Source: an uncultured Planctomycetia bacterium
GTDB taxonomy: Bacteria; Planctomycetota; MHYJ01; WSZJ01; CAZWCX01
Reading direction: 5' to 3'
Assembly (NCBI GenBank): GCA_964632945.1
Contig: CAZWCX010000020.1
Coordinates: 8,596-72,595 of the forward strand
DNA: 64,000 nucleotides
The position numbers and the translations under genes were made by a program. The notes below the pieces were generated by a model. It ran no database searches and was not told the DNA's origin. It saw nothing but the letters and a program-made list of their open reading frames with translations. Within the stretch, counting starts at the first letter, position 1; the number at the start of each line of letters is the position of its first letter. Below, piece by piece: positions 1-55,653 of the stretch.

Positions 1-263
1 CGACGGCCTCCTCGAATCCCCGCAGTTTCGCCCCGTAGCAGCCGCACATCTTGTGGATGACCAGCCAGGAACCGACCACGAGGGGCATGAGGTGAAGGTA
101 GGTCGCCACGAATTCGGGCGACTCCCGCTTGGTGAACTGATCGACCAGCCAACCGTACCGGAGTTGGACGGCGGCCAGATAGGCCACCGACAGGGCGACC
201 GCGTCGCTCAGCAGGAGCGTGAGCTTGTACGAATATTCGCGCGTCTGGACCATCCGCCCGCCT
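1..263 (-). CDS. Polyprenyl-phosphate glycosyl-phosphotransferase (bacterial sugar transferase family), N-terminal part. The gene runs off the left edge of the window.
   Basis: The minus-strand translation from ATG at 263..261 reads MVQTREYSYKLTLLLSDAVALSVAYLAAVQLRYGWLVDQFTKRESPEFVATYLHLMPLVVGSWLV..., the typical hydrophobic N-terminus of WbaP/WcaJ-type exopolysaccharide sugar transferases. GGAGAAGG sits just upstream of the ATG. It is absent from the ORF track because it has no in-window stop. Confidence 0.5.
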
Positions 264-334
264 TCTCCCGGGGAGCGACCCGAAGGAACAAGCCCGCCAC
301 CATACCTGCGCGGCCGCAACGCGTCAACGATCGC

Positions 335-562
335 GTGGACGGAACCGGCCGCTGGCCCGGATATTCATGAAGCCGCGTCTGCGGCATCGGGCAGAATCCG
401 CCCGCGGGCTCCGCTGGCGGCGTCAGCAGCCGGGACCGCGGGGCGACCGGCGGGTGACACGGTGTCGCACGTCGGGCGAGGCAGTCCTGCTCTGGACGGC
501 CTTCATGGTCGGCCGGAGCCGGATGGTTCGCGAACCGCGAAGCGGTTCGTCATGGATCCGGG
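335..562. repeat. Copy A of a ~230-bp conserved intergenic element. It is about 86% identical to 10168-10394 and lies between the HK stop (563) and the sugar-transferase start (263).
   Basis: Direct comparison with 10168-10394 shows long identical runs: tcatgaagccgcg, atccgcccgcgggct, gaccgcggggcgaccggcg, ggcgaggcagtcctgct, ggtcggccggagccggatggttcgcgaaccgcgaag. It contains the palindromes ggttcgcgaacc and gacac-n-gtgtc. Confidence 0.75.
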
Positions 563-2403
563 CTACGCGGGGGACTCCGGGACGGAGAACGGCCGCCAGG
601 GCGCGGCTCCGGGCTCGAGTTCGATGCGATAGACGGTCCCCTCCTCCGGCACGTCGCGGGCGTCGATCCGGCAACCGAGGAGGTGGCAGAGTGCGCGGGA
701 CAGGGTGAGCTCGAGCCCGGGGCCGAGCCCGGGGGCGCCGTCGGTGCTGGGGGTGTGGAAGAGATCGAACATCGAGCCCGGCGCGTCGCGCGGGATGTGC
801 GCGCCCGGGTGGATGACTTCGATCGTCGCGGGACGCCCGCCGTCCCCGCCCGCGCCGACGCGGACCAGGATCCGGCCCGGCCGCGAGCCCTTGAGCGCGT
901 GGTCGATGACGTGGAGGAGGACCTGCCGCAATTTCACGGGGTCCGTTTCCAGCGGCGACAGCCCATCCGGAATCTCCGCGGCCAGTTCCACGCCCCGCGA
1001 CCGGGCCGGGAGTTCCAGCAGGTCGAGAACGTCGCGCACCAGCGCCCCGACCGAGACCGATCGGGTCGAGACGTCGACCCGGCCGGCTTCGATGCGCGAC
1101 AAGTCGAGGATCTTGTCGATCATCGCCAGCAGGCGGCTGCCGTTGTCGCGGATCTTCTCGGTGTAGGTGAGATCCTGGTCGCCGAGACGGCCCTCCTTGT
1201 TCTTGCGCAGGACGTTGGCGAAGCCGATTACCGAATTGAGGGGAGTGCGCAATTCGTGACTCACGTTGGCCAGGAACCGGCTCTTGGCCCGATTGGCCTC
1301 CTCGGCCGCGGTCTTGGCCTTCAGCAGCTCATCCGCCGCCTTGCGGTCGGTGATGTCATGTCCGACCGCGTAGAAGACCTGGTCTTCCGGGGACGGACCC
1401 GCGCTCCACAGAAACCAGCGCCAACCGCCGTCCTTGGTGCGAAGCCGCGCCTGGAAGGAGATCACCGACTCGCCCGCGCCCAGCCGGCGCACCAGATCTT
1501 CCGCGGCCGCGCGCTCCTCCTCATGGGTCAGGTGCAGGAATGAGATCGACTGCAACTCGGCGCGCGTGAATCCCGTAACCTTCTCCCAGGCCGGATTGAC
1601 CCGCCGGAACTGGCCGTCCAGTCCGCCGATGAAAAAGAGGTCGACGGCGAGCATGAAGAACTGGTCCAGCTCGGCGACCGCGCGCTTGCGCCGCGTGGTC
1701 TCGATGGCGAGTCGTTCGCGCAGGCCGACGGGACCGCGGAGATAGGCCTCGGCGTAGTGCTGGATGAAACCGGCGAGCCGCGGCTCCTCCTCGAGCAACG
1801 GCGTGAGGGTCGCGCGCACGTTGGGCTCCGACTCGGCGGACACCTGCGGGTGCATTTCGGACCATTGATGGCAGGCACGGAGGTGTTGCAGCAGGCAGGC
1901 CCAGGCCTCATACTTCCGGGAGCCGAGGACCCGCGCCAATTCGGTGCGGGCGCGTTCCGCGCCCGCCGGCTGCAGGTAGAGCAATTCCGTCAGCCAAAGC
2001 AGGTCCGCTTCCATCTCGCCGCCGGGGGCCGGCCAATCGGCCATCGACCCTGGGCTGATCGAGAGCCGCTCCACCGCCGCCTCGGCGTCCGCTTCCCCCG
2101 TGGGCCCGGGCTCGCGCAGCAAGGTGAAGATCTCCCGGCCCGGCACCCCGAGCGCGCGCAGGGCGCAAAGGTGGTGAACCAGGGCGTAGGACACGGGACA
2201 GGCACGCGACAGGCGGGTGCAGACCAGTTCCCGCAACCGGGGCGGGATCGGGGAATCCCAGTACCCGGCGCGCTCCTGCCGCCAGAGGACCGCCGCCATC
2301 TCCGCGGAGGTGCCGGGAGCGGTGAGCAGGGCCGGGACGTACCCAAGCCGGTCCTGGATTTCCTGTCGCAGGGTCTCCGGGAGGGCCCGGGAGCCCGCGA
2401 GCA
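563..2403 (-). CDS. PAS-domain sensor histidine kinase
   Basis: H-box motif ANVSHELRTPLNSVIGF, then a HATPase region (GLGLTLSRALCHLLGCRID), with a PAS-like region upstream. The start was taken at the ATG that encodes MLAGSRALPETLRQ (cat at 2401-2403). The upstream 284 aa of the track ORF 563..3256 are R/G/P low-complexity sequence overlapping the next gene, and I treated them as spurious. Confidence 0.7.
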
Positions 2404-2412
2404 TCCCGTGGC

Positions 2413-4323
2413 TCACGACCGTCGCTCCTCTCTGGCCCGGAGATCCAGATCGCGCAGGGCCTGCTCGAGATCGCGCTCGACCTTCTCCCAGCTCTGGTAC
2501 GCGGGGATACTCTCGGCCTCGACTCTCCCCAGGTCCGCGCGCACTTCCTCCCGGTCGCTGACCAGGACCACGGGAAGCCGCCGCAGACGGGTCTCGCGCC
2601 GGATCGCGTCGACGAACGGAAGACCCTCCCGCACCGGCGCGGCCAGACCGACGATGACCAGGTCGGGCGTGACCAGCCGCATACGCTCCATCGCCTCCGC
2701 GCAGGAATCGACGGCCAACAGTCGCGCCCCGGCCTCTTCCAGGTATTCCGCCATCAGCCGGCGGTCGTCCTCGTCCTCCTCGATCAGCAGGGCGAGAGGG
2801 GCGGGGGATCCGAACGAACGCTGCAGCAGGGCGCGCACGTCGCGGCGCGTGACCGGCTCGTCCAGGAAGTCGACCGCGCCGAGCACGATGCCCCGATTTT
2901 CCCTCGCCACGACGCTGACCACGACGACCGGAAGGTCGCGCGACTCCGGATCCGCGCGCAGCGCCCGCAGCACGTCCCAGGCACAGATGCGCGGCATCAT
3001 CAGGTCCAGGAGGATGAGATCCGGGCGTTGTTCCCGCGCCAGCCGCAGACCCTGCTCCCCGGAAGTGGCATGAATGGTTTCGAATCCGGCCCCTTGGACC
3101 CAGCGGGTGAGCAGGAGTCGGGAGTGGGACTCGTCGTCGATGACCAGGATCCGCGGGGACCGGAATCCGGCGGGGACCGGACGGGTCCCCGCGGGGTGGG
3201 AGCGGGACTCCGAACCGGGCCGTTCCGCGCCCGCCGGGGCGACCCGGATCGGCCACCCGAGGTGGACGCTGAAGGTGGAGCCCTTTCCCGGTTCACTCGC
3301 CGCGTCGATTCGAAACCCCATGCGATCGCAAAGCGAACGGGAGATCGCCAGTCCCAGCCCGGCCCCCTCCGCCGCCCGCGGACGCCCCGGATCGTTTTGA
3401 AACGGTTCGAACAGCGCCGCGACCTGGGCGCGCGCCATCCCCACGCCGGTATCGGCCACGTCGATCCGCACGGGACGCCGCGTCGACGGATCGACCTCGA
3501 CTCGCACGACCACCGATCCACGCGGGGTGAACTTGATCGCGTTGCCGATGAGATTGACCAGCACCTGCTTGAGTCGGTCGGCATCGGTTTGAATCGGCAG
3601 CGCCTCCGAGGGGAGCTCCGCAACCAGGCGGACCTCGCGTTCGCCGACCTGCGACTCCATCTGCGCCATCGTCTCCTTCACCAGCGTCTGAAGGGAGACG
3701 GGCGCGATCCTGAGTTCGAGATGGCCGGACTCGATCTTGGAGAGGTCGAGGATCTGGTTCACCAGGTTAAGCAGGTGAAGGGCATTTTCGTGGACACGAC
3801 CGACATAGGTCGCGTCCTGTTCGCCCAGGATGGGCGCGCCTTTCTTGAGCAGCAGGCGGGAGAAGCCGATGATCGAGCTCAGGGGGGTGCGCAGTTCGTG
3901 GCTCAGATTCGCGACGAACGAACTCCGGGCGTTGTCGACGTCGGCGGCCCGTTCGGCCGACATCTTGAGGGACTCCGTCTGGCGCTTGAGCACTTCATTC
4001 AGACGGCGGAGGGAAGTCTCACGCTCAAGCGCTTCGCGCAGGCGAAGGTCGAAGGCCGAAATGGCGGCGGCGAGGAAATCCGCCGCGCGCGCGGCGAGGG
4101 AAGTCCCGGCATCGCCGCGCTCCGCCAACGCCTCGGCCAACCCGGCGCGGTGTACCGCCAGGAGATCGCCCAACCCGAGGCCGTGCTGCAGCGCTTCCGG
4201 CCCCAGCGCGGCCGCCTCCTCCGCACCATGAGCCCTCTCCGCCGCAGCGAGGCTGCGGCGCAGCGCATGGGCATAGCGCTCGGAGAAGGAAAGGGGCGCA
4301 GAGTCGATGGCGCTTCTCCTCAT
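2413..4323 (-). CDS. Hybrid sensor histidine kinase with two C-terminal receiver domains
   Basis: HisKA motif FVANLSHELRTPLSSIIGF, a HATPase region (DTGVGMARAQVAALFEPF...GLGLAISRSL), then two REC domains (RILVIDDESHSRLL...DLILLDLMMP and a second APLALLIEEDEDDRRL...DLVIVGL). The start is the ATG encoding MRRSAIDS (4321-4323). The track's start at 4392 is a TTG and would overlap the upstream REC gene. Confidence 0.7.
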   Translation of the reverse strand: MRRSAIDSAPLSFSERYAHALRRSLAAAERAHGAEEAAALGPEALQHGLGLGDLLAVHRAGLAEALAERGDAGTSLAARAADFLAAAISAFDLRLREALERETSLRRLNEVLKRQTESLKMSAERAADVDNARSSFVANLSHELRTPLSSIIGFSRLLLKKGAPILGEQDATYVGRVHENALHLLNLVNQILDLSKIESGHLELRIAPVSLQTLVKETMAQMESQVGEREVRLVAELPSEALPIQTDADRLKQVLVNLIGNAIKFTPRGSVVVRVEVDPSTRRPVRIDVADTGVGMARAQVAALFEPFQNDPGRPRAAEGAGLGLAISRSLCDRMGFRIDAASEPGKGSTFSVHLGWPIRVAPAGAERPGSESRSHPAGTRPVPAGFRSPRILVIDDESHSRLLLTRWVQGAGFETIHATSGEQGLRLAREQRPDLILLDLMMPRICAWDVLRALRADPESRDLPVVVVSVVARENRGIVLGAVDFLDEPVTRRDVRALLQRSFGSPAPLALLIEEDEDDRRLMAEYLEEAGARLLAVDSCAEAMERMRLVTPDLVIVGLAAPVREGLPFVDAIRRETRLRRLPVVLVSDREEVRADLGRVEAESIPAYQSWEKVERDLEQALRDLDLRAREERRS

Positions 4324-4363
4324 GCGGATCCCGGAGCCGCCGCAGGCACCGTCCCGTTCACGG

Positions 4364-4771
4364 CTACCGGAGTCGCCGCGTGATCGCGCCAAGCAGCGCC
4401 ATTTCGTCCAGGATCGGCTTGGTCAGATAGTCGTCGAAGCCGGCTTGCAGAAACTTCTCCCGGTCCCCCGCCATCGCATGCGCGGTCAACGCGATGACCG
4501 GCAGCGACTTGAGACGATCGTGCGCCCGAATGTGCGAAAGCACTTCGACTCCATCCATGGTCGGAAGCGAGATGTCCAGGAGCACCAGGTCGGGCATGGC
4601 TCGCTGGAGCCCCTCGAGCGCCTCCTGGCCGTTTTCATACTCCCGAACATCGAATTGGTCATCCAGGATGGCGCGCAACAGCAAGCGATTGTCCGCATTA
4701 TCCTCCACCACCGCAATCGCTTTCTTCACTTCAACCTCCGACCAGGGAGAACCGGAATCTGCCTCGGTCAA
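4364..4771 (-). CDS. Single-domain response regulator (CheY-like receiver)
   Basis: AIAVVEDNADNRLLLRAIL...DLVLLDISLPTMDG...ALTAHAMAGDREKFLQAGFDDYLTKP. The phospho-acceptor Asp and the conserved Lys are in the expected context. Confidence 0.8.
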   Translation of the reverse strand: MTEADSGSPWSEVEVKKAIAVVEDNADNRLLLRAILDDQFDVREYENGQEALEGLQRAMPDLVLLDISLPTMDGVEVLSHIRAHDRLKSLPVIALTAHAMAGDREKFLQAGFDDYLTKPILDEMALLGAITRRLR

Positions 4772-5121
4772 CGGGCCGCCTCGAGCCAGGACTTGACCCG
4801 CGCGTACTCCGCCTCCAATTCGTCCAGCCGGGCGTTCACGTCGCCGAGCCGATTCGCCTCCCCCATTTCCTCCAACCGCTCACAGAGCGCCATCATCGCC
4901 ATGGCCCCCAGCTGTCCGCTGCTGGATTTCAGCGCGTGCATCGGCATCCGAACGGCGGCTCCGTCCCCCGTTGCCCCCCCCGCGCGGGCGCGCGCGATCC
5001 GTTCGGGCGTCTGGCGAACAAACAGGTCGATCAACTGCTGAAGGAGTTTTTCTCCCCCCAGACGCCGAAGCCGTTCGATGGCGGAATCGTCGGTGGCGGA
5101 ACGAGGCGAGACGTCGTACAT
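4768..5121 (-). CDS. Hpt (histidine phosphotransfer) domain protein
   Basis: Hpt signature HALKSSSGQLGAMAM within an all-alpha 117-aa protein. The start is the ATG at 5119-5121, preceded by a GAGGT-like SD. Its stop overlaps the start of the downstream REC gene. Confidence 0.7.
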   Translation of the reverse strand: MYDVSPRSATDDSAIERLRRLGGEKLLQQLIDLFVRQTPERIARARAGGATGDGAAVRMPMHALKSSSGQLGAMAMMALCERLEEMGEANRLGDVNARLDELEAEYARVKSWLEAAR

Positions 5122-5319
5122 GATCGTACCTCACAGCCAGACCCGGGGCGACTTCGCTCTCCCGGGGAGCCTGAACCCGGACCTCGAACTTGCCCGCGCC
5201 GGATTGCGCGGGAGGAGGCTCCCGCCCCCACGGACCGGGCTGAATCCGTTCCATCGGTCACCGTAGCCGACGCCCACGCCGATGTCAAGGCGGCGGCCGG
5301 GCGCGACCCGCCGTGCGCA

Positions 5320-5709
5320 TCAGGACGGCAGGACACACGGCTGGATCTGCCCCCCTTCGATCTGACCGATGACCTCCAGCAGCTCTTCGAGCGAGAACGG
5401 CTTTTCCAGATAGGCCAGGCAACCGTTCATCCGGGCCCGCGATTTGGTCTCCGGGTCCTTCCGTCCCGAGATTACCACGATCGGAATGTCGGAGGTGTCC
5501 CAGTGGCTGGTAATCCACTTCGCGAACTCATGCCCATCGATTCCGGGCATCATGATGTCCAGAAGGACGAGATCGAACCGGGCCATCTGGACGTACACCA
5601 TGGCTTCCCCGGCGGTCGCCGCGGTGGTCACATGGTGTCCGCGCCGCCCCAACAGCCCCCGCAGGAGCGTAAGGGTGTCCTTCTCGTCGTCGATCACCAG
5701 GATACGCAT
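5320..5709 (-). CDS. Single-domain response regulator (receiver)
   Basis: MRILVIDDEKDTLTLL...DLVLLDIMMPGIDG...KPFSLEEL. Its start overlaps the stop of the upstream REC gene at 5709. Confidence 0.8.
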   Translation of the reverse strand: MRILVIDDEKDTLTLLRGLLGRRGHHVTTAATAGEAMVYVQMARFDLVLLDIMMPGIDGHEFAKWITSHWDTSDIPIVVISGRKDPETKSRARMNGCLAYLEKPFSLEELLEVIGQIEGGQIQPCVLPS

Positions 5710-6116
5710 CAGGCTTCTCCTTGCGGCTGCCAGCGCAGCGCCTCTTCCACGCCTTCGACCAGGGTCCGTTCGTGGGCCGGCTTGTACAGGTAACGACAGA
5801 CCGTCTCCAGCCCGTCCAACCCGCTGCCGACCGGAAACGAACTCGCGCCCGTGATCATGACCACCGGAATGCGGGCGGTGGCGGCGCGCTGGGAGAGCTC
5901 GCGGGCGATTTCGATGCCGTTCCGGCCGGGGAGCAGGATGTCCATCAGAATCACGTCGGGTTTGAGGGTCTCCACGCGTTGCAGCGCCTGCTCCCCGCTC
6001 TCGGCGATGTTTACCGCGTAGCCGACGCTCTTCAGGATATGAGAATGCACCATGGCCGTAGCCAGGTCATCTTCCACCACCAGCACCCTTCGGATCCGCG
6101 TCGCGGCCGTGGTCAT
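5709..6116 (-). CDS. Single-domain response regulator (receiver)
   Basis: RVLVVEDDLATAMVHSHIL...DVILMDILLPGRNG...ITGASS...YLYKP. Confidence 0.8.
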   Translation of the reverse strand: MTTAATRIRRVLVVEDDLATAMVHSHILKSVGYAVNIAESGEQALQRVETLKPDVILMDILLPGRNGIEIARELSQRAATARIPVVMITGASSFPVGSGLDGLETVCRYLYKPAHERTLVEGVEEALRWQPQGEA

Positions 6117-6208
6117 CGAGGCTCACCTCAAAACAGGGACCGATGCAGGTCCAAAACCCCAAGGTCCGCCGGCGCGGAACCGAAGTCCCGGCGCCGCCGC
6201 GGAGATCG

Positions 6209-7081
6209 TCACTCGCGCACGCGCACGAGCAGCAGGGGGGACGGCACGGAGTGGAGCACCTTCTCCGTCGTCCCGCCGAAGAACAAGGCCCGGAAACCGC
6301 TGCGACCGTGCGTGGTCATGGCCACCAGATCCGCCCGCCATTCCGCGGCCGCCTTCTGGATCTCGACCGAGGGCTCACCCTGCCGCAGGACAGGCTCTCC
6401 GGCCCGCACGCCCCGCTCCTTCAGTGTGGCGGTCAACCGGTCCAGGTAGACCTTTCCCTCTTCCGTCAGTTTCTTCGCCGGACCGCCGAAGCGTGTGCGC
6501 AGGATCGTGTTCATCGGCACGACATGGAGGAGGCGCACCTCGGCATCACAGCGACGCAGGAATTCGCCGACTTCCTTCAGGATCACCTCTGCGGTCGGCG
6601 ACCCGTCGAGAGGGATCAGGATGCGTTCGAACTTCCCCGGCGGCAGCGACACGTCCGGCACCCCGCCCTCCTGGATGCGAACCAGGAACATGGGGGTCGA
6701 GAGGACGCGGAGACACTTGTGCGCCACGCTGCCGAATCCGTGCCCCGGACGGCCGCTGGCGCCGTGGGTCGCCATGGCCACCAGGTCGATCGCGGTGCCG
6801 CGCACGTAGGTTTCGATCGCCTCGTGCGCCGGTCCGGCCGCCATGTCCCAGCGCACCCGTCCGCCCCGCGATTCCAGAATTCGGCGGAGGGTCTCGAGAT
6901 ACTGCGCGGTCTCCTCTTCGCTGGACAACTTCAAGTCCACGCCTGCCCCCGCCGCGACCGATTCCGCCACTCGCAGCAGGTGGACCTCCGCCTCAAACAG
7001 GTGCGCCAACCGCTCCGCAAACGGCAAGGCATTTTCCGCATACCGGGAGCCGTCCAGCGGGACCAGGATTCTTCGATACAT
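6209..7081 (-). CDS. Universal stress protein with tandem UspA domains
   Basis: Two Usp-like halves: MYRRILVPLDGSRYAENAL...ATHGASGRPGHGFGSVA and ERILIPLDGSPTAEVIL...HGRSGFRALFFGGTTEKVL. It is the first gene of the minus-strand operon that continues into the phosphorelay genes. Confidence 0.75.
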   Translation of the reverse strand: MYRRILVPLDGSRYAENALPFAERLAHLFEAEVHLLRVAESVAAGAGVDLKLSSEEETAQYLETLRRILESRGGRVRWDMAAGPAHEAIETYVRGTAIDLVAMATHGASGRPGHGFGSVAHKCLRVLSTPMFLVRIQEGGVPDVSLPPGKFERILIPLDGSPTAEVILKEVGEFLRRCDAEVRLLHVVPMNTILRTRFGGPAKKLTEEGKVYLDRLTATLKERGVRAGEPVLRQGEPSVEIQKAAAEWRADLVAMTTHGRSGFRALFFGGTTEKVLHSVPSPLLLVRVRE

Positions 7082-7694
7082 GGACTCTCCTTCCCTCTGC
7101 CCCGGCTCGGAGGGGCAAAGTACTCCGGTTTCGGAACTGCTGCACTACTGCGACTCGCAAATTCTACGCCGGGAGAAACCTGTGATCGGCGGAGGTGACA
7201 GCGCCTCGCGCAGATGACCCAAGTGGTTTGGACCGGCGCAATCACGGTGACTCTCCAGACCGAGAATCGCACCGGCGAGCGGGTGGCCAGGACGACGGGC
7301 GTCTCGCTCGTGCGACATTGCCGCTCCGAGATCCCACCATTGTGACAGATTTGCTCGGGGCGATCTTGCCGGCCGGGGGCCGAAGGGACTTTGCGCCCGG
7401 GCGCCGCCGGCGTCGCCCTCCCATTCTCACGGGAGAGGATGCGGCGGCGCGGCTGGACCGCCGGGGGGTTCCCGCTAGAACGCCACGACCGTGCCGAAGT
7501 CGGCACGTGGGTTGCTGCCCTTCATCTTCTGTGCCGTGCGGCGGCGCGAGACGAGTTGGAACCAGGATCCTCCGACGCGGAGCGGGGACCCCTCGGCTTC
7601 GTTCGCGGATCGGCCGAACGGGGAAGAGGAGGCGATTCCCCGGACAGGGAGGGAACGGCGCCAAGGCGAGTGTGGATCCTGCAGGAGGCATCCC

Positions 7695-8606
7695 ATGTTT
7701 GAACGAATCGTCATCCCGCTGAACGGCACGCCGCACGCCGAGGCGGTGATTCCCGAGGCGCTCAAGTACTTCCATTCCCCGAACCTGGAACTCGATCTGC
7801 TCACGGTGGTGGATCCGGAGTCCACGCGCCTCGCCACCGCGGCGCCGACCGTCACCTCGAGCGGGCATGCCGCCAAGGAGTACCTGGATCGGATGGCGCA
7901 CAATCTCGAGGAGCGGGGCATTCATGCCCGCGTGGACGTGCGGTTCGGCCCCACGCCCGCGAAGATCCTGGAGCATGCCACGCAGTCGCGCGCGAGTTTG
8001 ATTGCGATCGCGACGCGCGGCCGATCCGGGCTCGGCCGATTGGTGCGGGGCAGCACGGCAGAGTCGGTCCTGCGGAAGTCGCCGGTCCCGCTGTTGATGA
8101 TCCGCGGCGGGGGCAATCTTCCGGCGGCGGCCGAATCCGCGCGTCCGGGCGGTATACCCCGCATCCTGGTGCCGCTGGACGGCACCATGGAGGCGGAATC
8201 GATCCTCCCGTACGCCCGTTATCTTTGCCGGCGGGTCAAGGGCCGGATCGAACTGTTGCGCGTGATCGAGTTCATTCCCGTCCTGCATGGGGACGAGGGG
8301 GTGATGGAAGGTGCGTTCGACCACGCGACGTTGGGAGCGGGCGACTACCTGCGCGGGATGGGCGACCGGCTGCGGGAGGACGGGCTCGAAGTGGAGCAGA
8401 CGGTCGTCCGCGCGTCCCCGACCGAAGGGATCCTGGACCGGGCGAATTCCGGAACGATCCACCTGGTGGCGATGTCCACGCACGGACGTCGCGGCATCCG
8501 GCGCCTGCTCCTCGGCAGCATCGTGGAGTCCGTGCTCCGCCAGTTGCGGGTGCCTCTCTTCACGATGCGCCTGCGCGCGACGGTCCCGGCATCCGATCCG
8601 TCGTGA
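7695..8606 (+). CDS. Universal stress protein with tandem UspA domains
   Basis: MFERIVIPLNGTPHAE...ATRGRSGLGRLVRGSTAESVL and RILVPLDGTMEAESIL...THGRRGIRRLLLGSIVESVL. The start ATG at 7695 has AGGAGG 7 nt upstream. The track ORF begins at 7491 with an unsupported N-terminal extension. Confidence 0.75.
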   Translation: MFERIVIPLNGTPHAEAVIPEALKYFHSPNLELDLLTVVDPESTRLATAAPTVTSSGHAAKEYLDRMAHNLEERGIHARVDVRFGPTPAKILEHATQSRASLIAIATRGRSGLGRLVRGSTAESVLRKSPVPLLMIRGGGNLPAAAESARPGGIPRILVPLDGTMEAESILPYARYLCRRVKGRIELLRVIEFIPVLHGDEGVMEGAFDHATLGAGDYLRGMGDRLREDGLEVEQTVVRASPTEGILDRANSGTIHLVAMSTHGRRGIRRLLLGSIVESVLRQLRVPLFTMRLRATVPASDPS

Positions 8607-8677
8607 CGTCGGGCCGCTGGGGGTCCGATCCCGACCGGCCGGAGAAGCCCGGCGGGGCGGGGCGCGACCGCGGCCCC

Positions 8678-10066
8678 TCAGCCGCGGAACTGCTCCGGGT
8701 TGATCTCGTGTTTCTTCAGCAGGCGATAGAGGGTCCCGCGCGGAATCTTGGCCTCGCGCGCCGCCGCCGTCACCTCCCCCTCATAGGAGCGCAGCAGCGC
8801 GCTCAGGTATTCCTTCTCGAACGCGGCCACGCGCTGGGAGCGGAGCGCGAAGAAGCCGCTGCGATCGGCCGCCCCGGGTTCCCCGGCCTTGAGCACGACA
8901 TCCTCGGGCAGATCCTCGGGCGTGAGCATGGGGTGCCGTGTCAGGGCCATGGTCCGACCGATCACGTTTTGAAGTTCCCGCACATTCCCCGGCCAGGGGT
9001 AGCGACAGAGGATTTCGAGCATCTCCGGATCCACCTGCACCACCCCCTTCCCCATTTCGCGGGAGTAGCGCTCGACGAAGTGCTGCACCAGCAGGGGAAT
9101 GTCCTCCGGCCGTTCGCGCAACGGCGGGAGCGTGATTCGCGCGACGTGGATCCGGTAATACAAATCCTCCCGAAAGCGCTTTTCCCGCATCTCCTCGGCG
9201 AGGTCGCGATTGGTGGCGGCCAGGACGCGAACGTCGACGGTGATTTCCTCGTGCCCCCCGACGCGACGAAACCGCCGTTCCTGCAGGGTGCGCAGCAGCT
9301 TGGCCTGCATCGGCAACGGCAACTCGGCGATCTCGTCGAGGAACAACGTCCCATTATCCGCGAACTCGAGCAACCCCATGCTTCGGCTGGTTGCCCCGGT
9401 GAAGGCGCCGCGCTCATGACCGAAGAACTCGCTCTCCAGCAGATTCTCCGGAATCGCCGCGCAATCGGCGGGCACGAAACGCTGTCCGGAGCGCGCGCTC
9501 AGGGCATGGATTCGTCGCGCCACGAGTTCCTTTCCGGTCCCCGTCTCGCCGACGATCAACACGTCGACGTCGGTCTCGGCCACTTTCTGGATCGTGTCCA
9601 TGACGGTGAGGACGGAGGGGCTCCGGCCCACGATCTGCTCGCTCGGACCATTGCGGCCGATCTGGCGCTGGAGCAGTTCGTTCTCCTCGCGCAACCTCCG
9701 CCCGTCGAGAAGACGCCGGACGGTGGCCAGCAGATCGTCGGGAAGCAGGGGCTTGGTGACGTAGTCCGAGGCCCCGAGCTTGAGGCAGTCGACTGCCGTT
9801 TCGACCTTGGGGTAGGCGGTAATCACGACGACCGAAAGATCCGGGTGGAACTTCCGGGCCACTTTGAGCAATTCCACCCCGTCCATTTCCGGCATGCACA
9901 TGTCGGTCAGGAGCAGGTCGAAGCTCTCCGCTTCGAGGCGTTTGGCCGCCCGTCGGCTCTGCGTTTCGAGAACGACCTCGGCATTGGCGAGTTTCTCGAG
10001 CGTGGCAGCGCAGATCAGCAGCGTGTCTTCTGCGTCGTCCACGACCAGGATGCGGGACTTGGTCAT
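8678..10066 (-). CDS. Sigma-54-dependent transcriptional regulator (NtrC family: REC + AAA+ sigma-54 activator + Fis-type HTH)
   Basis: Receiver domain (RILVVDDAEDTLL...DLLLTDMCMPEMDG), Walker A GETGTGKE, sigma-54 contact motif GAFTGA (ERGAFTGATSR), arginine finger region, and a C-terminal HTH (AAREAKIPRGTLYRLLKK). The start ATG is at 10064-10066, preceded by GGAGG. Confidence 0.85.
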   Translation of the reverse strand: MTKSRILVVDDAEDTLLICAATLEKLANAEVVLETQSRRAAKRLEAESFDLLLTDMCMPEMDGVELLKVARKFHPDLSVVVITAYPKVETAVDCLKLGASDYVTKPLLPDDLLATVRRLLDGRRLREENELLQRQIGRNGPSEQIVGRSPSVLTVMDTIQKVAETDVDVLIVGETGTGKELVARRIHALSARSGQRFVPADCAAIPENLLESEFFGHERGAFTGATSRSMGLLEFADNGTLFLDEIAELPLPMQAKLLRTLQERRFRRVGGHEEITVDVRVLAATNRDLAEEMREKRFREDLYYRIHVARITLPPLRERPEDIPLLVQHFVERYSREMGKGVVQVDPEMLEILCRYPWPGNVRELQNVIGRTMALTRHPMLTPEDLPEDVVLKAGEPGAADRSGFFALRSQRVAAFEKEYLSALLRSYEGEVTAAAREAKIPRGTLYRLLKKHEINPEQFRG

Positions 10067-10167
10067 GGCGGCCCTCCTACCATCCCCCACCGGTTGCGTT
10101 TATTGTACCGGCGCTGGGACAGGCGAACAAGGGGCCTGACGGCCCGCCGAAAGGCGCGGTAACGCGA

Positions 10168-10394
10168 GTGGAACACCGCCCGCCAGCCCGGATTAGTCAT
10201 GAAGCCGCGTCGGCGGCTTCGGGAAGCATCCGCCCGCGGGCTCCTGGCTGCGTCCGCAGCCAGGACCGCGGGGCGACCGGCGTGCGACACACGGTGTCGC
10301 AGGCTGGGCGAGGCAGTCCTGCTCCGGACCGCCTTCCCGGTCGGCCGGAGCCGGATGGTTCGCGAACCGCGAAGGGGTTCGCGTATCATCCGCG
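10168..10394. repeat. Copy B of the ~230-bp conserved intergenic element. It lies between the lipoprotein stop (10395) and the sigma-54 regulator start (10066).
   Basis: About 86% identical to 335-562 in the same orientation and the same relative context. In this copy a perfect hairpin cctggctgc-gtcc-gcagccagg replaces a weaker hairpin at the same position in copy A. Confidence 0.75.
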
Positions 10395-10874
10395 CTAGGG
10401 GGTCTTGCGCAGGGGGCGGCCGCAGCACCACCCCTCGACGTTGTACGTCTTTCGGCAGGCGTTGCACTGCCAGCCGGACGGGGGCAGCTCGGCGAACTTG
10501 CGTCCGTCGGGCGCTTCGAAGACGGGGCCGACCGGTTCGTCCCGGCCCGCTGCGCGGGGCGGATCGGACGGGGGGGATCCCCGCCGCGAGCGCGCCTCCG
10601 CCGGCGTCGTCGCGGCCCCCGCGGGTTCGGGGGCGGCGGTCACGGTCGCGGCCGCGGGAGGCGCCTCGGGGGTCGGTCGCCGGTCGGGCGGCGCCGCCTC
10701 CGGCGCGGGGGTGGTGGCGGATCGGGGGGCGGGGGAAGTCGCACCCCGCGACGCCCGGTACGCCTCGTAGGCGGAGGAGGACCCGCCCGATCCCGTCAGG
10801 TACGAGGTCCTCCCGTCCGGCGCGGCGGAACAGCCGGCGAGAGCGACGGCCAGGACGAGCGGCAGCGCGCGCAT
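10395..10874 (-). CDS. Lipoprotein with a Cys-rich C-terminus
   Basis: MRALPLVLAVALAGCSA gives a lipobox LAGC. The protein is Ala/Pro/Thr-rich and ends with a C-terminal CNACRKTYNVEGWCCG cluster. The start was taken at the ATG encoding MRALPL. Confidence is modest because the protein is low-complexity. Confidence 0.45.
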   Translation of the reverse strand: MRALPLVLAVALAGCSAAPDGRTSYLTGSGGSSSAYEAYRASRGATSPAPRSATTPAPEAAPPDRRPTPEAPPAAATVTAAPEPAGAATTPAEARSRRGSPPSDPPRAAGRDEPVGPVFEAPDGRKFAELPPSGWQCNACRKTYNVEGWCCGRPLRKTP

Positions 10875-10940: not shown

Positions 10941-13886
10941 TCAACGGTTCTCGGGGCGGGGCAGGAGACGACGGAGCCGCGGCTCCGGCTCGAGGAGCCG
11001 AAGCTCGACTCCGTGCTTGACCGCCTGCCGCAGGCACAGTCCGGCTTCGACGATTTGACCGCATCGTTCATGGGCGCGGGCAAGCGCAAGCCAGGCCTGC
11101 GGAGAGTCCGGATGCACGAGCGCAGCGGCGGCGGCGCGCGCCCGGGCGGGCCCGGGATCTTTCCCGGCAAGGGCCGCGACGGACTCTTCGATCAGTCTGT
11201 GCGCGACGGCCGGCGCGCAGGCGGCCACCCTCGTCCCGACCGGGCCGGCTTCCTCCACGGGGGCAAGAGGGAGCCCGTGTTCGCCCCGCTGCCAGGCCTC
11301 CCAGCGCTCGCCCAGCGCGGGCGGGGCGTACCGCCGGGCGGCTTCCGTGAAGGCCTCGACCGCCGGGCCCTCGCGTCCCGCCGCGATCATGACGAATCCG
11401 AGCGCCACCGCCGGCTCGGGCCGGGCTTGGTCCAGGCGGGCGGCGGCGGCGAGACAGCGCTCGGCCTCGTCCACACGACCCGCGCGCGCATGCAGAATTC
11501 CCGATGCGAACCAGGCTTCGCCATCGCGCGGCCGGGAGGCGATCGCCCGCCCGAGGAACGCTGCGGCTTCGTCGCTCCGACCGAGCCGGAGAGCCAGCCG
11601 GCCGCCGATGAGGGCGAGGAGGCCGTCCTCGCGACGTTCGCTCGACGCCCGGGCGACGGCCTCCGCGGCCTCGCCGGCTCGTCCCGCGTCCGCCAGCGCG
11701 TCCGCGAGCCGGATCCGTTCCGCCCCCGCTTCGGGGGAAGTGCCCTCGCGATCCACCGGGCGGACGAGCGCCGCGCAGGCGCGAGCCGTCAAATCAGGGT
11801 CCGTCCCCCGCCCGGCCGCGACCGCCTCCGCCAGGGTCGCCGGGTCTTCGGGCCCGGCCGCCCATGCGCGCGCGAGCGCGGCCTCGGCCTCCCGCACCCG
11901 CCCCGCCGCGCGGTGGGCCGACGCCAGGTGAGCCCAGAGACTCGCCTCGTCCGGAAGCCGTTCCGCCCAGGTCGCGAGCCGCGTTGTGGGGTCCTGCCCG
12001 TGCCAGCAGCGCAACCGGAACCCGGCCTCGCCCAGCATGCGAATGTCTCGGGCGGCCGGATGCAGTTGGAGTCGGAGCGCGACGTCCAGGGCTTCCGCCG
12101 CCTCCTCCGCCTTTCCCGCCGCCAACAGGACCTCGGCGCGGACCGAAAACGCCGCGGCGCCGCGGGGAGATCCAAGCAGGAGCCGCTCGCTGGTGTCCAG
12201 CGCCTCCCGAAGGTCGGGGACCCCGGCCAGAAGCAGGGCGCGGACGTACACGTACAACACCTCCGGTCGCGCCTCCTGCTCCGCGAGCAGCGCGCGCGCC
12301 GCGACGAGAGCGCCTTCCGCGTCGCCGGCGCGGAGCGACGCGCGAACCCGCGAGGCGAGGGCGAACCCGTGCGCCGGCCGGGCGGAGAGCCGCCGGGCCG
12401 CCTCCCGGCCCGCGGCCACCCGGTCTTCGCACTCGCGCGCATAGCCGCGCTCCAACAGGCGGTCCGCGTACGCCTGGATCCGATACAGCGTCCGATCGGT
12501 GTCCGGGTCGCGCGCCACGAGGATGTCCAGATCCTGCCCGGCGGTCCCCAAGTCGCCGAGAGCCTCCGCAACCACGGCGCGCGTCTGGCGGGCGTCCCAC
12601 AGGTCCGGAGCCTCGGCGACGATCCGGTCCAGCTCTTCACGCAATCGGGCTGCGCGAGCCGCCCAGGTGTCGATCGGTTCCGTCCCGCATGCGTTCCACT
12701 CGTGCAGCACCTCGCGGTAGCGTCCGTGCAGGGTGTCGAGTCGTCTCGCCTCCCGGTCGAGCTTCGCCGCATGCTCCACTTCCAGGACCGAGTAATAGAG
12801 CACCCCCGCACTCACGGTGAGCACCAGCGCGCCCACCGCCGCGGTGAGAGGCAGCTTCCGGCGCGCAACCCGCGCGACCCGTCCCAGGAAAGAGGGCGGG
12901 CGCGCGGCGATCGGCAGCCCTTCCAGGAAGCGAAGAGTGTCGTCCGCGAGGGCCTCCGCGGAGGGGTAGCGGCGCGCCGGGTCCTTCTCCAGGCACTTGA
13001 GGCACAGGGTCTCGACGTCGGCGCTCACATCCGCGTGGAGCCGGCGCGGCGCCTCCGGGAGGGTGTGCACGACGTCGTGCAGCACCCGCGGCGTCGGTCC
13101 GACGAACGGCGGCCGACCGGTCAGAAGCGTGTAGAGCACGGCCCCGAGGGAATACACGTCACTGCGCGCGTCCACCTGCTCGAGGCGACCCAGCGCCTGT
13201 TCCGGCGGCATGTAGGCTGGGGTGCCGAGCAAGGTTCCCTCCAGCGTGAGCAACGATTCGCGCGAGAGGTCCTTGGCGAGCCCGAAGTCGGTGATGAGGA
13301 CCCGGCCGTCCCCGGTCAGCAGCAGGTTCTGGGGCTTGAGGTCGCGGTGGACCACCCCTTCGGCGTGGGCGTAGGCGAGCGCGAGGGCGACTTCGTGAAT
13401 CAGTTCGAGGGCGCGGCGGGGGGTGGGCCGTCCGCGTCGCGCCAGGTCATCGACCGTCTCTCCGATGATATAGTCCATCGAGTAGTAGTGGAGATCCCCA
13501 TCCTGGCCCACGTCATGAATGGCCACGATTCCGGGATGATGCAGACGCGCCGCGGCCTGCGCCTCGCGGTGGAACCGCTGCACCCCCTCCGCGTCGGCAG
13601 GACCCCGGGCGCGCAGCACCTTGAGGGCGACGGTCCGGTTGAGGTCGCGCTGGCGGGCGAGATAGACCACTCCCATCGCGCCCGAGCCGAGCTCTCCCAG
13701 AATCTCATAGGCTCCGATCGATGGCGGAGCCGGCGCCGTGGAGGGGGACGGCGGAGGGACCGCCGGGGCCGCGGCAAGGGCGGTTTCGACCGGTCCCCCC
13801 GACGGCGTCCGGAGGACCGTGGGGTTGACACCCGCAGACGAGTCAGGCGACCCGGCGGGCGCCGGGGGTGTGGCGTCCTGCGGCAT
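10941..13886 (-). CDS. Ser/Thr protein kinase with a C-terminal TM/TPR-like helical repeat region
   Basis: Complete Hanks kinase motifs: GSGAMGVVY, VALKVL, HRDLKPQNLLL, DFGLAKD, GTPAYMPPE. These are followed by a hydrophobic segment and about 550 aa of alpha-helical Ala/Leu/Arg-rich repeats. The start ATG is at 13884-13886 (MPQDATPP), preceded by a GGAGAA SD. Confidence 0.8.
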   Translation of the reverse strand: MPQDATPPAPAGSPDSSAGVNPTVLRTPSGGPVETALAAAPAVPPPSPSTAPAPPSIGAYEILGELGSGAMGVVYLARQRDLNRTVALKVLRARGPADAEGVQRFHREAQAAARLHHPGIVAIHDVGQDGDLHYYSMDYIIGETVDDLARRGRPTPRRALELIHEVALALAYAHAEGVVHRDLKPQNLLLTGDGRVLITDFGLAKDLSRESLLTLEGTLLGTPAYMPPEQALGRLEQVDARSDVYSLGAVLYTLLTGRPPFVGPTPRVLHDVVHTLPEAPRRLHADVSADVETLCLKCLEKDPARRYPSAEALADDTLRFLEGLPIAARPPSFLGRVARVARRKLPLTAAVGALVLTVSAGVLYYSVLEVEHAAKLDREARRLDTLHGRYREVLHEWNACGTEPIDTWAARAARLREELDRIVAEAPDLWDARQTRAVVAEALGDLGTAGQDLDILVARDPDTDRTLYRIQAYADRLLERGYARECEDRVAAGREAARRLSARPAHGFALASRVRASLRAGDAEGALVAARALLAEQEARPEVLYVYVRALLLAGVPDLREALDTSERLLLGSPRGAAAFSVRAEVLLAAGKAEEAAEALDVALRLQLHPAARDIRMLGEAGFRLRCWHGQDPTTRLATWAERLPDEASLWAHLASAHRAAGRVREAEAALARAWAAGPEDPATLAEAVAAGRGTDPDLTARACAALVRPVDREGTSPEAGAERIRLADALADAGRAGEAAEAVARASSERREDGLLALIGGRLALRLGRSDEAAAFLGRAIASRPRDGEAWFASGILHARAGRVDEAERCLAAAARLDQARPEPAVALGFVMIAAGREGPAVEAFTEAARRYAPPALGERWEAWQRGEHGLPLAPVEEAGPVGTRVAACAPAVAHRLIEESVAALAGKDPGPARARAAAAALVHPDSPQAWLALARAHERCGQIVEAGLCLRQAVKHGVELRLLEPEPRLRRLLPRPENR

Positions 13887-14000
13887 CGCGACCGCGTTCT
13901 CCCATCGACGGGTGACGGCAACCGAGGCCCGACCCCCGACCCGCCTTCGGGAGACGGGGAGGGCTTTTCCCCGCATTCGAAGTGCGGCGGGGCCATCCCG

Positions 14001-21738: not shown

Positions 21739-23484
21739 CTACAACTCCACCCGGTTCCGCCCGCCGGCCTTGGCGGCGTACAGGGCACGATCGGCGCGCG
21801 AGAGGAGCCCCTGCAGGTCCCGGGTCGTCGCATCCAATTCGGACACGCCGACGCTGCACGTGACCCGGATCACGTCCCCCCCGCTCGAGGGCAAGGCGAT
21901 CTCGGCAATGCGGCGGCGGAGGTCATCGGCCAGGGCGCACGCCTTCTCCAGCGAGGTCTCGGGCAGCAGGAGAATGATCTCGTCCCCGCCGAAGCGCGCG
22001 CCGATGTCGCATGCCCGCAACCGCTGGCGAATCACCTGCGCGACTTCCACGAGGACGGCGTCTCCCCGATCATGCCCGTACCGATCGTTGATCTCCTTGA
22101 ACCGGTCCAGGTCGATCATGACGGTCGAAACCGTGGTGCCGTATCGCCGCGACCGCGCCAGTTCTTCGTCGGCCCGTTCGGTCAGAAACCGACGGTTGTA
22201 GAGACTCGTCAGCGGATCCACGGTCGAAAGCCGGCGCACCTCCCGCTCGGCCTGGATCCGCTCCGTAATGTCCTTCATGAAACAATAGTGGCCCTGGAAG
22301 GTTCCCTCGGCATCCCGATCCGCGACCATGACGAGCTGCTTGAAAAACTCCGAACCGTCCTTGCGCCGCCCGCGTGCATCGATCTCGACCCTCCCCGTCG
22401 AGATCATCTGGCCGTAGGCCTCCTGCATCCGTTCGAGGTCGTCCGGGTCAACCGTCTGCTGCCATGGACGTCCGATCAGTTCTTCCGGCCGGTACCCGGC
22501 AATGTTCGCATACGCAGGGTTGACCGTCACATAACTGCCGGCCGCATCCAGCCGGGAGATCCCTTCGAGGGCGTGACTGAGGATGGCATTGAAGGCCCGC
22601 AGCTCCCGCTCGGCTTTCTTCTGATCGGTCACGTCGCGAAAGATCCCGCGGGTCGCGACCAGGCGGTCATTCTCGAACTGGCCGTTGACGCTTCCCGACA
22701 ACTCCAGGCGCCGGCCATCCCGGGCGACCAGTACGGTTTCCACGTCGCTGAGACTTTCGCCCTGCACGACGCGCCGGAACATCGCCTCGCAGTGGGCGCG
22801 ATACTCGGGATCGACCAGATCGAAGATATTCAGATTGCCGATTTCGTGGTCCGCATAGCCGAGCAGTTCGCGCCACTTCCGATTGGCGAATCGGATCCGT
22901 CCATCCGGTCCCACGCTCTGGATCAGGTCGTTGGCGTTCTCCATGAAGTCCCGGAGGCGCCTCTCCTGTTCGTGGAACAGCTTCAGCGCCCGGAGCATCT
23001 CGGCGGAACGGAGTTCCGATTCCGCCAGCGCCCCGAGATCATTCAGGATCCGCTCATCCTCCTCGGTGAAACGTCGGGGGGTGCGATCCAGAATGCAGAG
23101 CGCGCCGAGGCGCATCCCGTCCGGTCCCGCCAGGGGGCGACCGGCATAGAACCGGATTCCGGGCGGCCCTTGCACCAGGGGGTTGTCCGAGAAGCGGGAG
23201 TCGGCACGCGCATCCGGCACGACGAGAATCCGATCGGAGAGAATCGCGTGACCGCAAAACGACACGTCACGGGGCGTCGAGTCGACCTCCAACCCCTGCC
23301 GCGACTTGAACCACTGGCGAGCCGCGTCGATGAGCGTGATCAGCGCGATCGGGACGCGAAACAGTTGTTGGGCGAGGCGGGTGACGCGGTCGAACCGCTC
23401 TTCCGGCCCGCTGTCGAGAATTCCCAGCGAATGCAGGACCGCGATTCGATCCGCCTCATTCGGCGGAGCGGCGGGCACCAACAT
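21739..23484 (-). CDS. GAF-PAS-PAS-GGDEF diguanylate cyclase family protein
   Basis: N-terminal GAF, two PAS-like segments, and a GGDEF domain (RFKEINDRYGHDRGDAVL...RFGGDEIILLLPET). The signature reads GGDEI rather than GGDEF. Confidence 0.8.
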   Translation of the reverse strand: MLVPAAPPNEADRIAVLHSLGILDSGPEERFDRVTRLAQQLFRVPIALITLIDAARQWFKSRQGLEVDSTPRDVSFCGHAILSDRILVVPDARADSRFSDNPLVQGPPGIRFYAGRPLAGPDGMRLGALCILDRTPRRFTEEDERILNDLGALAESELRSAEMLRALKLFHEQERRLRDFMENANDLIQSVGPDGRIRFANRKWRELLGYADHEIGNLNIFDLVDPEYRAHCEAMFRRVVQGESLSDVETVLVARDGRRLELSGSVNGQFENDRLVATRGIFRDVTDQKKAERELRAFNAILSHALEGISRLDAAGSYVTVNPAYANIAGYRPEELIGRPWQQTVDPDDLERMQEAYGQMISTGRVEIDARGRRKDGSEFFKQLVMVADRDAEGTFQGHYCFMKDITERIQAEREVRRLSTVDPLTSLYNRRFLTERADEELARSRRYGTTVSTVMIDLDRFKEINDRYGHDRGDAVLVEVAQVIRQRLRACDIGARFGGDEIILLLPETSLEKACALADDLRRRIAEIALPSSGGDVIRVTCSVGVSELDATTRDLQGLLSRADRALYAAKAGGRNRVEL

Positions 23485-52627: not shown

Positions 52628-52744
52628 TCGTCCCGGATCCGTGCGACCCCGAGGTTCGTCGTCATGACCTCACGCGGCCCCCGCTCGACTTCGCGTGGCG
52701 GGCCGAGATCGGATCTCCGCAACCCCGTTTGCCCGGGAGGACGA

Positions 52745-55558: not shown

Positions 55559-55653
55559 CGCGTTTTTGTTCCCGCGCGGGGGGAGTCTCCCGGTAGAATC
55601 TGCGCATCCGCCCGTCCGGCGTCCCGGGCGGGCGGACGTTGCGAGCGACCCCC

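Follow-up and report, generated by a model that had tools for sequence, protein, structure and literature searches.

The DNA analyzed here (the window, a 64-kb stretch of contig CAZWCX010000020.1 from an uncultured Planctomycetia bacterium) carries, at positions 563-7081, a cluster of seven genes that fits a multistep His-Asp phosphorelay. According to the open-reading-frame (ORF) listing and a Pfam scan, the order on the minus strand is a tandem universal stress protein (USPa), two single-domain receivers (REC_A and REC_B), a stand-alone histidine phosphotransferase (Hpt), a third single-domain receiver (REC_C), a hybrid histidine kinase (HK) with two receivers of its own (REC1 and REC2), and a PAS-domain kinase (PAS-HK). 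Upstream of the cluster are genes for a second tandem universal stress protein (USPb) and for a sigma-54-dependent response regulator (hereafter the activator). In the reading that we favor, and to which about an even chance is given, the cluster encodes a split relay that has one kinase, is modulated by a sensor-bearing pseudokinase, and probably feeds the activator and the USP genes.

In this proposed scheme, the hybrid kinase would be the only ATP-driven input and would autophosphorylate. The phosphate would then pass to REC1 and/or REC_C, from there to Hpt, and finally to terminal receivers. Transfer from Hpt to the activator would constitute the transcriptional output, by which USPb, and perhaps USPa and the relay genes, would be induced. 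REC_A and REC_B would be competing acceptors, serving as sinks or as protein-binding outputs. PAS-HK would not autophosphorylate; it would adjust the flow of phosphate through its dimerization and histidine phosphotransfer (DHp) domain in response to its own sensor domains.

Relay proteins and the probable pseudokinase

The hybrid kinase comprises a helical N-terminal domain, HisKA, a canonical HATPase_c, REC1, and REC2. Its H, N, G1, and G2 boxes are canonical in alignment (SHELRTP, NLIGNAIKFT, DTGVGM, and GAGLGL, respectively), and it is the sole protein of the cluster with an intact ATP-binding domain. A match of its N-terminus to RsbU_N (20.2 bits against a Pfam cut-off of 25.5) was below threshold and was not relied on. 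The phospho-His of Hpt is located in HALKSSSGQLGA; alignment of this protein along its length to 7c1i, a solved chain of 116 residues (E=3.8e-9), matches the His.

The six receiver domains of the locus (five in the cluster, one in the activator) were aligned to CheY. The active sites of REC_A (E/D, D, T, K), REC_B (DD, D, S, K), and REC_C (ED, D, T, K) are complete, and the receiver of the activator has the full acidic pocket, the phospho-Asp, the Thr/Ser, and the Lys. In REC1, the acidic residues and the Asp are kept, and the conserved Lys is changed to Glu (DFLDEP). REC2 has Gly at the position of CheY D57 (DLVIVGLAAP) and Trp at that of K109; judged by these residues, it is an Asp-less pseudo-receiver. 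As read from the alignment, the seven-gene cluster therefore holds three fully canonical receivers and one doubtful one (REC1).

Among named similarities in NCBIfam, both kinase cores are nearest to TorS, BarA, ArcB, and HrmK. Hpt is most similar to the C-terminal Hpt domain of TorS, and REC_C to the receivers of BarA (98.6 bits), HrmK, LuxQ, RcsC, and ArcB. The equivalog cut-offs of NCBIfam were reached by no protein of the locus. Because the kinase cores, Hpt, and REC_C all best resemble TorS/BarA/ArcB-type proteins, the Hpt-REC_C-kinase block looks like an unorthodox kinase of this type with its modules in separate genes. Two receivers of the hybrid-kinase type are available as possible intermediates, namely REC1 and the free REC_C, which is encoded between the kinase and Hpt. 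The best similarities of REC_A are to the receivers of response regulators (PhoB, MtrA, and CpdR); those of REC_B are mixed, with the hybrid-kinase receiver PRK15347 ranking before PhoB, PleD, and NtrX.

For the study of PAS-HK, 5.8 billion proteins were searched, the protein was compared with the 119 best homologues obtained, and positions conserved in at least 90% of these were considered. In the DHp domain, only three of 34 such positions are changed, all of them conservatively, and S-H-E-L-R-T-P-L-N is retained exactly (box SHELRTPLNS). In the catalytic and ATP-binding (CA) domain, 15 of 32 are changed, compared to a maximum of four and a median of zero among the homologues (n=119); the difference between the two domains has a Fisher p of 7e-4. 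The substitutions fall in the N box (N502H, N506H, and F510G), the G1 box (D536H and G540H, which convert DTGIGI to HPGAHI), the F box (Q555T), and the G2 box (T566P and G569E). At positions 502, 506, 536, 540, and 569, the residue replaced (N, N, D, G, and G) is identical in 118-119 of the 119 homologues. The signature of an active kinase (the N-box Asn, DxGxG in G1, and GxGxG in G2) is thus missing from PAS-HK. GHKL ATPases use these Asn, Asp, and Gly residues to bind Mg-ATP. Because they are replaced, PAS-HK is probably a pseudokinase that is unable to autophosphorylate.

The CA domain aligns to those of the homologues without deletions, lid region included; the HATPase_c fold is still recognized by Pfam (47 bits against a cut-off of 26.4); and codon bias is normal, with a GC content at third codon positions (GC3) of 0.89. 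Given the lack of deletions and the normal codon bias, the gene is, on sequence grounds, maintained and not decaying. At four of the 15 changed positions the new residue is His, which accounts for 2.8% of the protein overall (binomial p=6e-4), and these His residues form two HxxxH pairs: H502/H506 in the helix of the N box and H536/H540 in the loop of G1. This excess hints that the pocket was remodeled rather than randomly lost.

Several roles could be envisioned for such a protein. Its His box keeps the E and T residues that are linked to phosphatase activity, and it could act as a signal-gated phosphatase. It might instead serve as a second histidine phosphotransferase. It could also pair with the hybrid kinase as a heterodimer; the two proteins are 37% identical over the DHp-CA region, and their genes appear to be translationally coupled (GTGA). 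A more specific and rather doubtful proposal is that the rebuilt ATP site has become a binding site for a metal or some other small ligand, and that PAS-HK, with its AhpD-like module and PAS domain, operates as a signal-gated phosphotransferase or phosphatase in parallel to the classical Hpt; the relay would then have two His nodes under different regulation and one ATP-driven kinase. If this were true, PAS-HK with its rebuilt pocket would be a new kind of relay node.

The Cys/His-rich N-terminal module of PAS-HK (ca. residues 10-240; 1651-2416 on the minus strand codes for residues 1-255) precedes the PAS domain. A full HMMER search assigned it to a family of 726 representative clusters (E<=1e-3), in which a module of ca. 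230 residues forms the N-terminal part of histidine kinases and GGDEF cyclases. No Pfam match to it was obtained at E<=0.001 in ten family members checked. The family consensus features the motifs C-x4-C-x2-C-H-x-C and C-H-x-W-x-E-x-H-P; in PAS-HK, Ala and His replace the second and third Cys of the family motif (C78 and C81 in the family). Its own N-terminus matches the Pfam family CMD barely above the cut-off (24.6 against 23 bits), the PDB entry 2prr is matched at E=0.38, and the CxxC active site of AhpD/CMD proteins is absent. The module is thus only faintly AhpD/CMD-like; its input may plausibly be related to redox or metals. A single-sequence AlphaFold model of this region (pLDDT 49) was too poor to use.

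The initial annotation, which was made from the DNA letters and an ORF listing, had described a multistep His-Asp relay with two kinases, five receiver domains, and a stand-alone Hpt. Pfam returns exactly the gene order it gave. The relay fits the kinase with intact boxes, the His of Hpt, and the receivers with complete acidic pockets; an intact kinase, a receiver with its phospho-Asp, and an Hpt with its phospho-His are all present. The stand-alone Hpt is confirmed by its Pfam score and conserved His. The count of two kinases is correct for domain folds, but PAS-HK has lost the signature residues for nucleotide binding and is a probable pseudokinase. Likewise, there are five receiver folds, but REC2 has no phospho-Asp and REC1 has Glu in place of Lys.

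The sigma-54 activator, stress-protein genes, and transcription units

The activator gene is on the same strand as the relay, 1.6 kb upstream of 563-7081 and two genes away. Its product has the features of the NtrC class, with Pfam scores of 237 bits for Sigma54_activat, 86 for Response_reg, and 28 for HTH_8, all above the respective cut-offs. The initial annotation had found no gene for an output domain and had placed the output elsewhere, for example on sigma-54 activators. The former is correct inside 563-7081, but a REC-Sigma54_activat-HTH_8 regulator is encoded nearby; the latter idea is strengthened by this receiver-bearing activator, which has a complete receiver site and no adjacent kinase gene. 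We infer from this arrangement that the relay feeds the activator.

The activator missed the cut-offs of all NCBIfam equivalogs considered (score/cut-off: AtoC 430/714, NtrC 387/559, LuxO 339/800, and ZraR 360/760). Homologues with 59-66% identity occur in Planctomycetota, Nitrospinae, Tectomicrobia, Verrucomicrobia, Gemmatimonadetes, and others. In all five of the distant homologue contigs examined (among L016-L021), a kinase gene abuts or overlaps the start of the activator gene, and four of these five kinases are PilS-like, with the six transmembrane helices of a 6TM_PilS domain; no kinase gene is found directly upstream of the activator in the window or in L015. The latter, a 3.1-kb contig from public sequencing run SRR19169996, is the only close relative found. 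Its activator is 75% identical and is likewise convergent with a tandem USP gene, the product of which is 51% identical to USPb. The activators of the window and L015 are also the only two of the 120 best family members with the receiver active-site rim DDAED...KPLLP; the other 118 have motifs of the DDE-x-G and KPF-x-P types. Whether one of the cluster kinases is a displaced PilS orthologue was considered and rejected, as PilS-like kinases from the distant relatives match them no better than they match the unrelated kinase at 50915-52627.

Genes for multihaem cytochromes, NrfD/Fer4 proteins, or cytochrome oxidase are found near the activator gene in four of five distant relatives. An ancestral role of the activator family in respiratory control is suggested.

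USPa and USPb are 33% identical. The USPb gene is divergent from that of USPa and convergent with that of the activator. When all 1575 GG-N10-GC sites found on either strand of the window were ranked against the -24/-12 consensus, the sequence CGGCACGTGGGTTGCT, located upstream of USPb, came first. In L015, AGGCACATGGGTTGCG is found ca. 110 nt upstream of the orthologous USP gene, in intergenic DNA that is otherwise not alignable. The top rank of the site and its conservation amid unalignable DNA are good evidence, at the level of sequence, that a real sigma-54 promoter drives USPb, presumably under control of the adjacent activator. Comparison of the window with L015 defined no upstream activator site common to both, and the NmpR consensus (GCGCA-N5-TGCGC) was not found in the USP intergenic region.

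The -24 element of this promoter is overlapped by a perfect 18-nt palindrome (CGTGCCGAAGTCGGCACG, 7490-7507), which may be the binding site of a dimeric regulator. At the corresponding position, L015 has the looser TGCC-N8-GGCA, and repeats containing TCGCGA are found just upstream.

The seven genes at 563-7081 are all co-directional, and no unrelated gene is interposed. They had been described as an operon whose stops and starts overlap or abut at 5709, 4768-4771, and 2403-2413, with the interval between REC_B and Hpt as the one larger gap. Two overlaps were verified: that of the REC_A stop and the REC_B start (ATGA at 5709), and that of the hybrid-kinase stop (2413-2415) and the PAS-HK GTG at 2416 (GTGA), which has AGGAG 8 nt upstream; ATG 2404 is an alternative start for PAS-HK. 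At the third junction, TTG 4771 directly abuts the Hpt stop (4768-4770) and is a possible start for REC_C, but GTG 4729 is likelier, with a GGAGG Shine-Dalgarno sequence 5 nt upstream, and leaves a 38-nt gap after Hpt. The junction between REC_C and the hybrid kinase depends on the start chosen for the latter, with TTG 4392 giving a 29-nt overlap and ATG 4323 a 40-nt gap. In every gene, a Shine-Dalgarno-like sequence lies ahead of a plausible start (e.g. AAGGAGA before the USPa ATG at 7081). Four junctions are therefore tight: ATGA 5709, GTGA 2416, and two of about 40 nt or less. The gap between REC_B and Hpt (5122-5319, 198 nt) is real, but it is not the sole one of any size, as 92 nt separate the USPa stop (6209) from the REC_A start (6116). 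With these two gaps, short or overlapping junctions do not run through the whole cluster, and the seven-gene operon does not stand as it was written.

The larger gap contains the sequence TTGACA-17 nt-TACGGT, ca. 140 nt ahead of the start of Hpt. In the 128 kb of sequence obtained when both strands of the window are counted, TTGACA has only four occurrences, three of them upstream of correctly oriented genes; for these reasons, an internal promoter ahead of Hpt-REC_C-kinase-pseudokinase is considered likely. The cluster is thus probably composed of at least two predicted transcription units, USPa(-REC_A-REC_B) and Hpt-REC_C-kinase-pseudokinase. Between USPa and REC_A, at 6152-6137, there is a weak, terminator-like hairpin with a T-run that is no better than chance, and a generic promoter and terminator scan of 1-10600 yielded counts no higher than in shuffled sequence. 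A search of the window with Rfam at the gathering threshold gave no match, and a tRNA search of the window found none. No hydrophobic stretch compatible with a membrane helix was detected in any of the nine proteins of the wider locus; therefore, the system is predicted to be cytoplasmic, with all of its products soluble. The coordinates of the features are collected in Table 1.

Table 1. Genes and candidate promoters of the relay locus (positions are those of the window; aa, amino acids).
Feature	Position	Strand	Basis and remarks
USPa, tandem universal stress protein, 290 aa	6209..7081	-	Pfam Usp, two stretches, 183 bits; first gene of the co-directional cluster
REC_A, single-domain receiver, 135 aa	5709..6116	-	Pfam Response_reg, 72 bits; complete active site
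REC_B, single-domain receiver, 129 aa	5320..5709	-	Pfam Response_reg, 91 bits; complete active site
Hpt, stand-alone, 117 aa	4768..5121	-	Pfam Hpt, 46 bits; phospho-His in MHALKSSSGQLGA
REC_C, single-domain receiver, 121 aa from GTG 4729	4364..4729 (ORF 4364-4771)	-	Pfam Response_reg, 99 bits
Hybrid kinase, 636 aa from ATG 4323	2413..4323 (ORF to TTG 4392)	-	Pfam HisKA, HATPase_c, and two Response_reg
PAS-HK, probable sensor pseudokinase, 617 aa	563..2416	-	Pfam PAS, HisKA, and HATPase_c
USPb, second tandem universal stress protein, 303 aa	7695..8606	+	Pfam Usp, two stretches, 152 bits
Activator, sigma-54-dependent response regulator (REC, AAA+, HTH_8), 462 aa	8678..10066	-	Pfam; candidate terminal acceptor and output
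Candidate sigma-70-type promoter, TTGACA-17 nt-TACGGT	5260..5288	-	Consensus match in the 198-nt gap; prediction
Candidate sigma-54 promoter, CGGCACGTGGGTTGCT	7501..7516	+	Top-scoring GG-N10-GC site of the window; 178 nt upstream of USPb

The activator-USP-relay block is bracketed by a direct repeat of ca. 225 nt (344-572 and 10175-10404; ca. 88% identity, 9832-nt spacing). Both copies end at, or a few bases beyond, the stop codon of a minus-strand gene, and the ends of the repeat form an imperfect inverted repeat. The repeat is predicted to fold much better than shuffled sequence does, with z-scores of -5.1 (plus strand) and -3.6 (minus strand). Between the copies, none of the 72 predicted pairs is broken; six changes preserve pairing by wobble, and one is compensatory. 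The repeat has no Rfam match at E<=1 and no third copy in the window, a metagenome scan with its 24-nt core gave no match, and the intergenic region ahead of the L015 activator, which at 125 nt is shorter, does not contain it. The repeat may be an element resembling miniature inverted-repeat transposable elements (MITE) or repetitive extragenic palindromes (REP), or a structured RNA, and its two copies might delimit a block that is gained or lost as a whole.

The neighborhood of the block is rich in further signaling genes. Directly upstream, a Ser/Thr kinase with a long TPR tail is encoded at 10941-13976 (-), and a GAF-PAS-PAS-GGDEF cyclase and a HAMP histidine kinase are found at 21739-23484 (-) and 50915-52627, respectively. 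The gene at 35303-42043 (-) codes for a 2246-residue fusion of Ser/Thr kinase, AAA_16, TPR, GGDEF, GAF, sigma-54 AAA+, and Fis-type HTH domains; TTGACA-18-TAACGT is located 126 nt upstream of its start. An asparaginase with C-terminal ankyrin repeats (55639-57108, +) is encoded beside a second ankyrin-repeat protein (52664-54241, +). The asparaginase-ankyrin architecture is better known from the eukaryotic 60-kDa asparaginase/lysophospholipase.

Weighing of the alternatives

Several points weigh against the split relay that feeds the activator. The relay and the activator are tied together by proximity and by the absent adjacent kinase gene only, and an oppositely oriented gene separates them. 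The distinctive receiver rim of the activator could reflect a changed phosphodonor, and is equally consistent with the shared ancestry of the two closest sequences. REC1 lacks the conserved Lys and for that reason might not work as an ordinary intermediate. The promoters were called by matching to consensus sequences, although those of this organism are uncharacterized, and the window scan found no convincing sigma-54 site ahead of USPa, REC_A, or Hpt. Finally, no search route uncovered a homologous relay locus, so that the arrangement is known from this window alone. A search of the 5.8 billion proteins with Hpt returned the query itself only; that with PAS-HK yielded no relative that was full-length or shared the N-terminus, the matches covering PAS-DHp-CA only, at no more than 50% identity. 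A scan of a genome collection with the hybrid kinase gave 14 loci of generic kinases (28-39% identity) without synteny, and tblastn of the nine locus proteins against those 14 loci produced generic kinase and receiver matches, with no Hpt and no USP. A metagenome scan with USPa gave no match. The activator-USPb pair is the only part of the locus seen in a relative, and the L015 contig that carries it ends before the place where the relay would lie.

The main alternative, which is essentially the view taken in the initial annotation, is a relay without transcriptional output. It would end on REC_A, REC_B, and REC_C, acting by protein binding (as CheY, DivK, and CpdR do) or as sinks, and the activator would belong to another pathway with its kinase elsewhere. 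The intervening gene and the missing sigma-54 promoters before the relay genes favor this arrangement, as do the complete active sites of the three free-standing receivers; single-domain receivers are well documented as hubs or sinks (PMC9981736; NmpT in PMC11841059). It is nonetheless judged rather unlikely. The activator is without the neighboring kinase gene that accompanies all five of its more distant homologues, the kinases of this cluster are the only ones within 40 kb (the next is the one at 50915-52627), and a terminal regulator is the usual recipient of phosphate from a stand-alone Hpt. Still less probable is that the genes do not form one system at all, but that USPa, REC_A-REC_B, and Hpt-REC_C-kinase-pseudokinase are units of their own with their own partners, signaling genes merely being clustered here. 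The 92- and 198-nt gaps, the promoter-like sequence in the larger one, and the hairpin at 6152-6137 (although such hairpins are no commoner than chance) could be taken in this way, and no relative is at hand in which linkage is conserved. On the other hand, the seven genes are co-directional with nothing unrelated between them, REC_A and REC_B have no kinase of their own, and separate promoters are compatible with a single pathway: the regulator and kinases of NmpRSTU are encoded in different operons (PMC11841059). A further proposal, that PAS-HK retains kinase activity through an unusual nucleotide pocket and that the relay thus has two ATP-driven inputs, is considered very improbable. The recognizable HATPase_c fold, the lid region without deletions, and the normal codon bias agree with it, and His is able to ligate metal ions in place of Asn. 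Opposed to it is the replacement of both N-box Asn residues, the adenine-binding Asp and a Gly of G1, and a Gly of G2, which are nearly invariant among the homologues and are established as binding Mg-ATP in GHKL ATPases.

Known relays and significance

The best named similarities of the kinase cores, REC_C, and Hpt imply the His-Asp-His-Asp order of chemistry of TorS, BarA/GacS, and ArcB. In those proteins, however, HK, REC, and Hpt are parts of one polypeptide, whereas here they are encoded by separate genes, the kinase is predicted to be soluble, and an additional Asp-less receiver is present. In the LuxN/LuxQ/CqsS-LuxU-LuxO system of Vibrio, hybrid kinases pass phosphate to a small stand-alone Hpt and on to an NtrC-type sigma-54 activator. 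The present activator is not LuxO, as judged by its score (339 against 800 bits); the kinases here appear to be soluble, while those of the Lux system are membrane receptors, and the Hpt and activator genes are neither adjacent nor co-oriented as a pair. A similar route from hybrid kinase to Hpt to sigma-54 activator is taken by ShkA-ShpA-TacA of Caulobacter crescentus (PMC7010744). Shared with that system are a soluble hybrid kinase with one phosphorylatable receiver and one pseudo-receiver, a stand-alone Hpt, and a sigma-54 response regulator. In ShkA, a c-di-GMP-binding pseudo-receiver separates the ATP-binding domain from the real receiver (PMC7010744); the Asp-less receiver described here is C-terminal, and three free receivers, the probable pseudokinase, and the USP genes are added, with the link to the activator being inferred from the gene arrangement.

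The pseudo-HKs ChpT and Spo0B act as histidine phosphotransferases and are an alternative to Hpt proteins (PMC9981736, PMC3433190). PAS-HK resembles these, and the pseudokinase DivL, in that a DHp His is kept beside a kinase-like domain that does not appear to use ATP, in a relay with a hybrid kinase (PMC9981736, PMC3433190, PMC9430884). It does not have the compact, sensor-less, and lid-less architecture of ChpT and Spo0B; rather, it is a 617-residue protein with a full-length HATPase_c that has been altered by point substitutions, four of them to His, and with two N-terminal sensor domains, the AhpD-like module and PAS. In RetS-GacS and RedCDEF, a genuine kinase is modulated, or a receiver dephosphorylated, by a kinase-like protein that can do without kinase activity of its own. 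Both are mechanistic analogies only to the pseudokinase proposed here.

NmpRSTU of Myxococcus xanthus features two soluble kinases, a receiver-only protein that is a proposed sink, and an NtrC-like sigma-54 activator; the NmpR regulon includes a USP gene, and there is cross-talk with PilR (PMC11841059). The scheme proposed here recalls this multi-kinase input to an NtrC-like regulator that controls a USP gene, and the activator family found here is normally paired with PilS-like kinases. The Nmp system differs in having a globin-domain sensor and neither Hpt nor pseudokinase, and, as noted, its regulator's site is absent upstream of the USP genes here.

All of the components belong to well-known families, and the understanding of two-component signaling is unchanged by this locus. 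The lineage is almost unsampled, and the arrangement is not yet generalizable. As a natural example of an unorthodox kinase that appears to have been split into genes, the locus would make each transfer step separately accessible. The probable pseudokinase, in which sensor domains and an intact His box are combined with a former ATP pocket now lined by His, and which is apparently coupled in translation to a real kinase, is a good candidate for studies of pseudokinase gating in phosphorelays. For the widely conserved PilR-like family of sigma-54 activators, the locus suggests that the input was switched from a membrane-bound PilS-like kinase to a soluble relay, tied to universal stress proteins.

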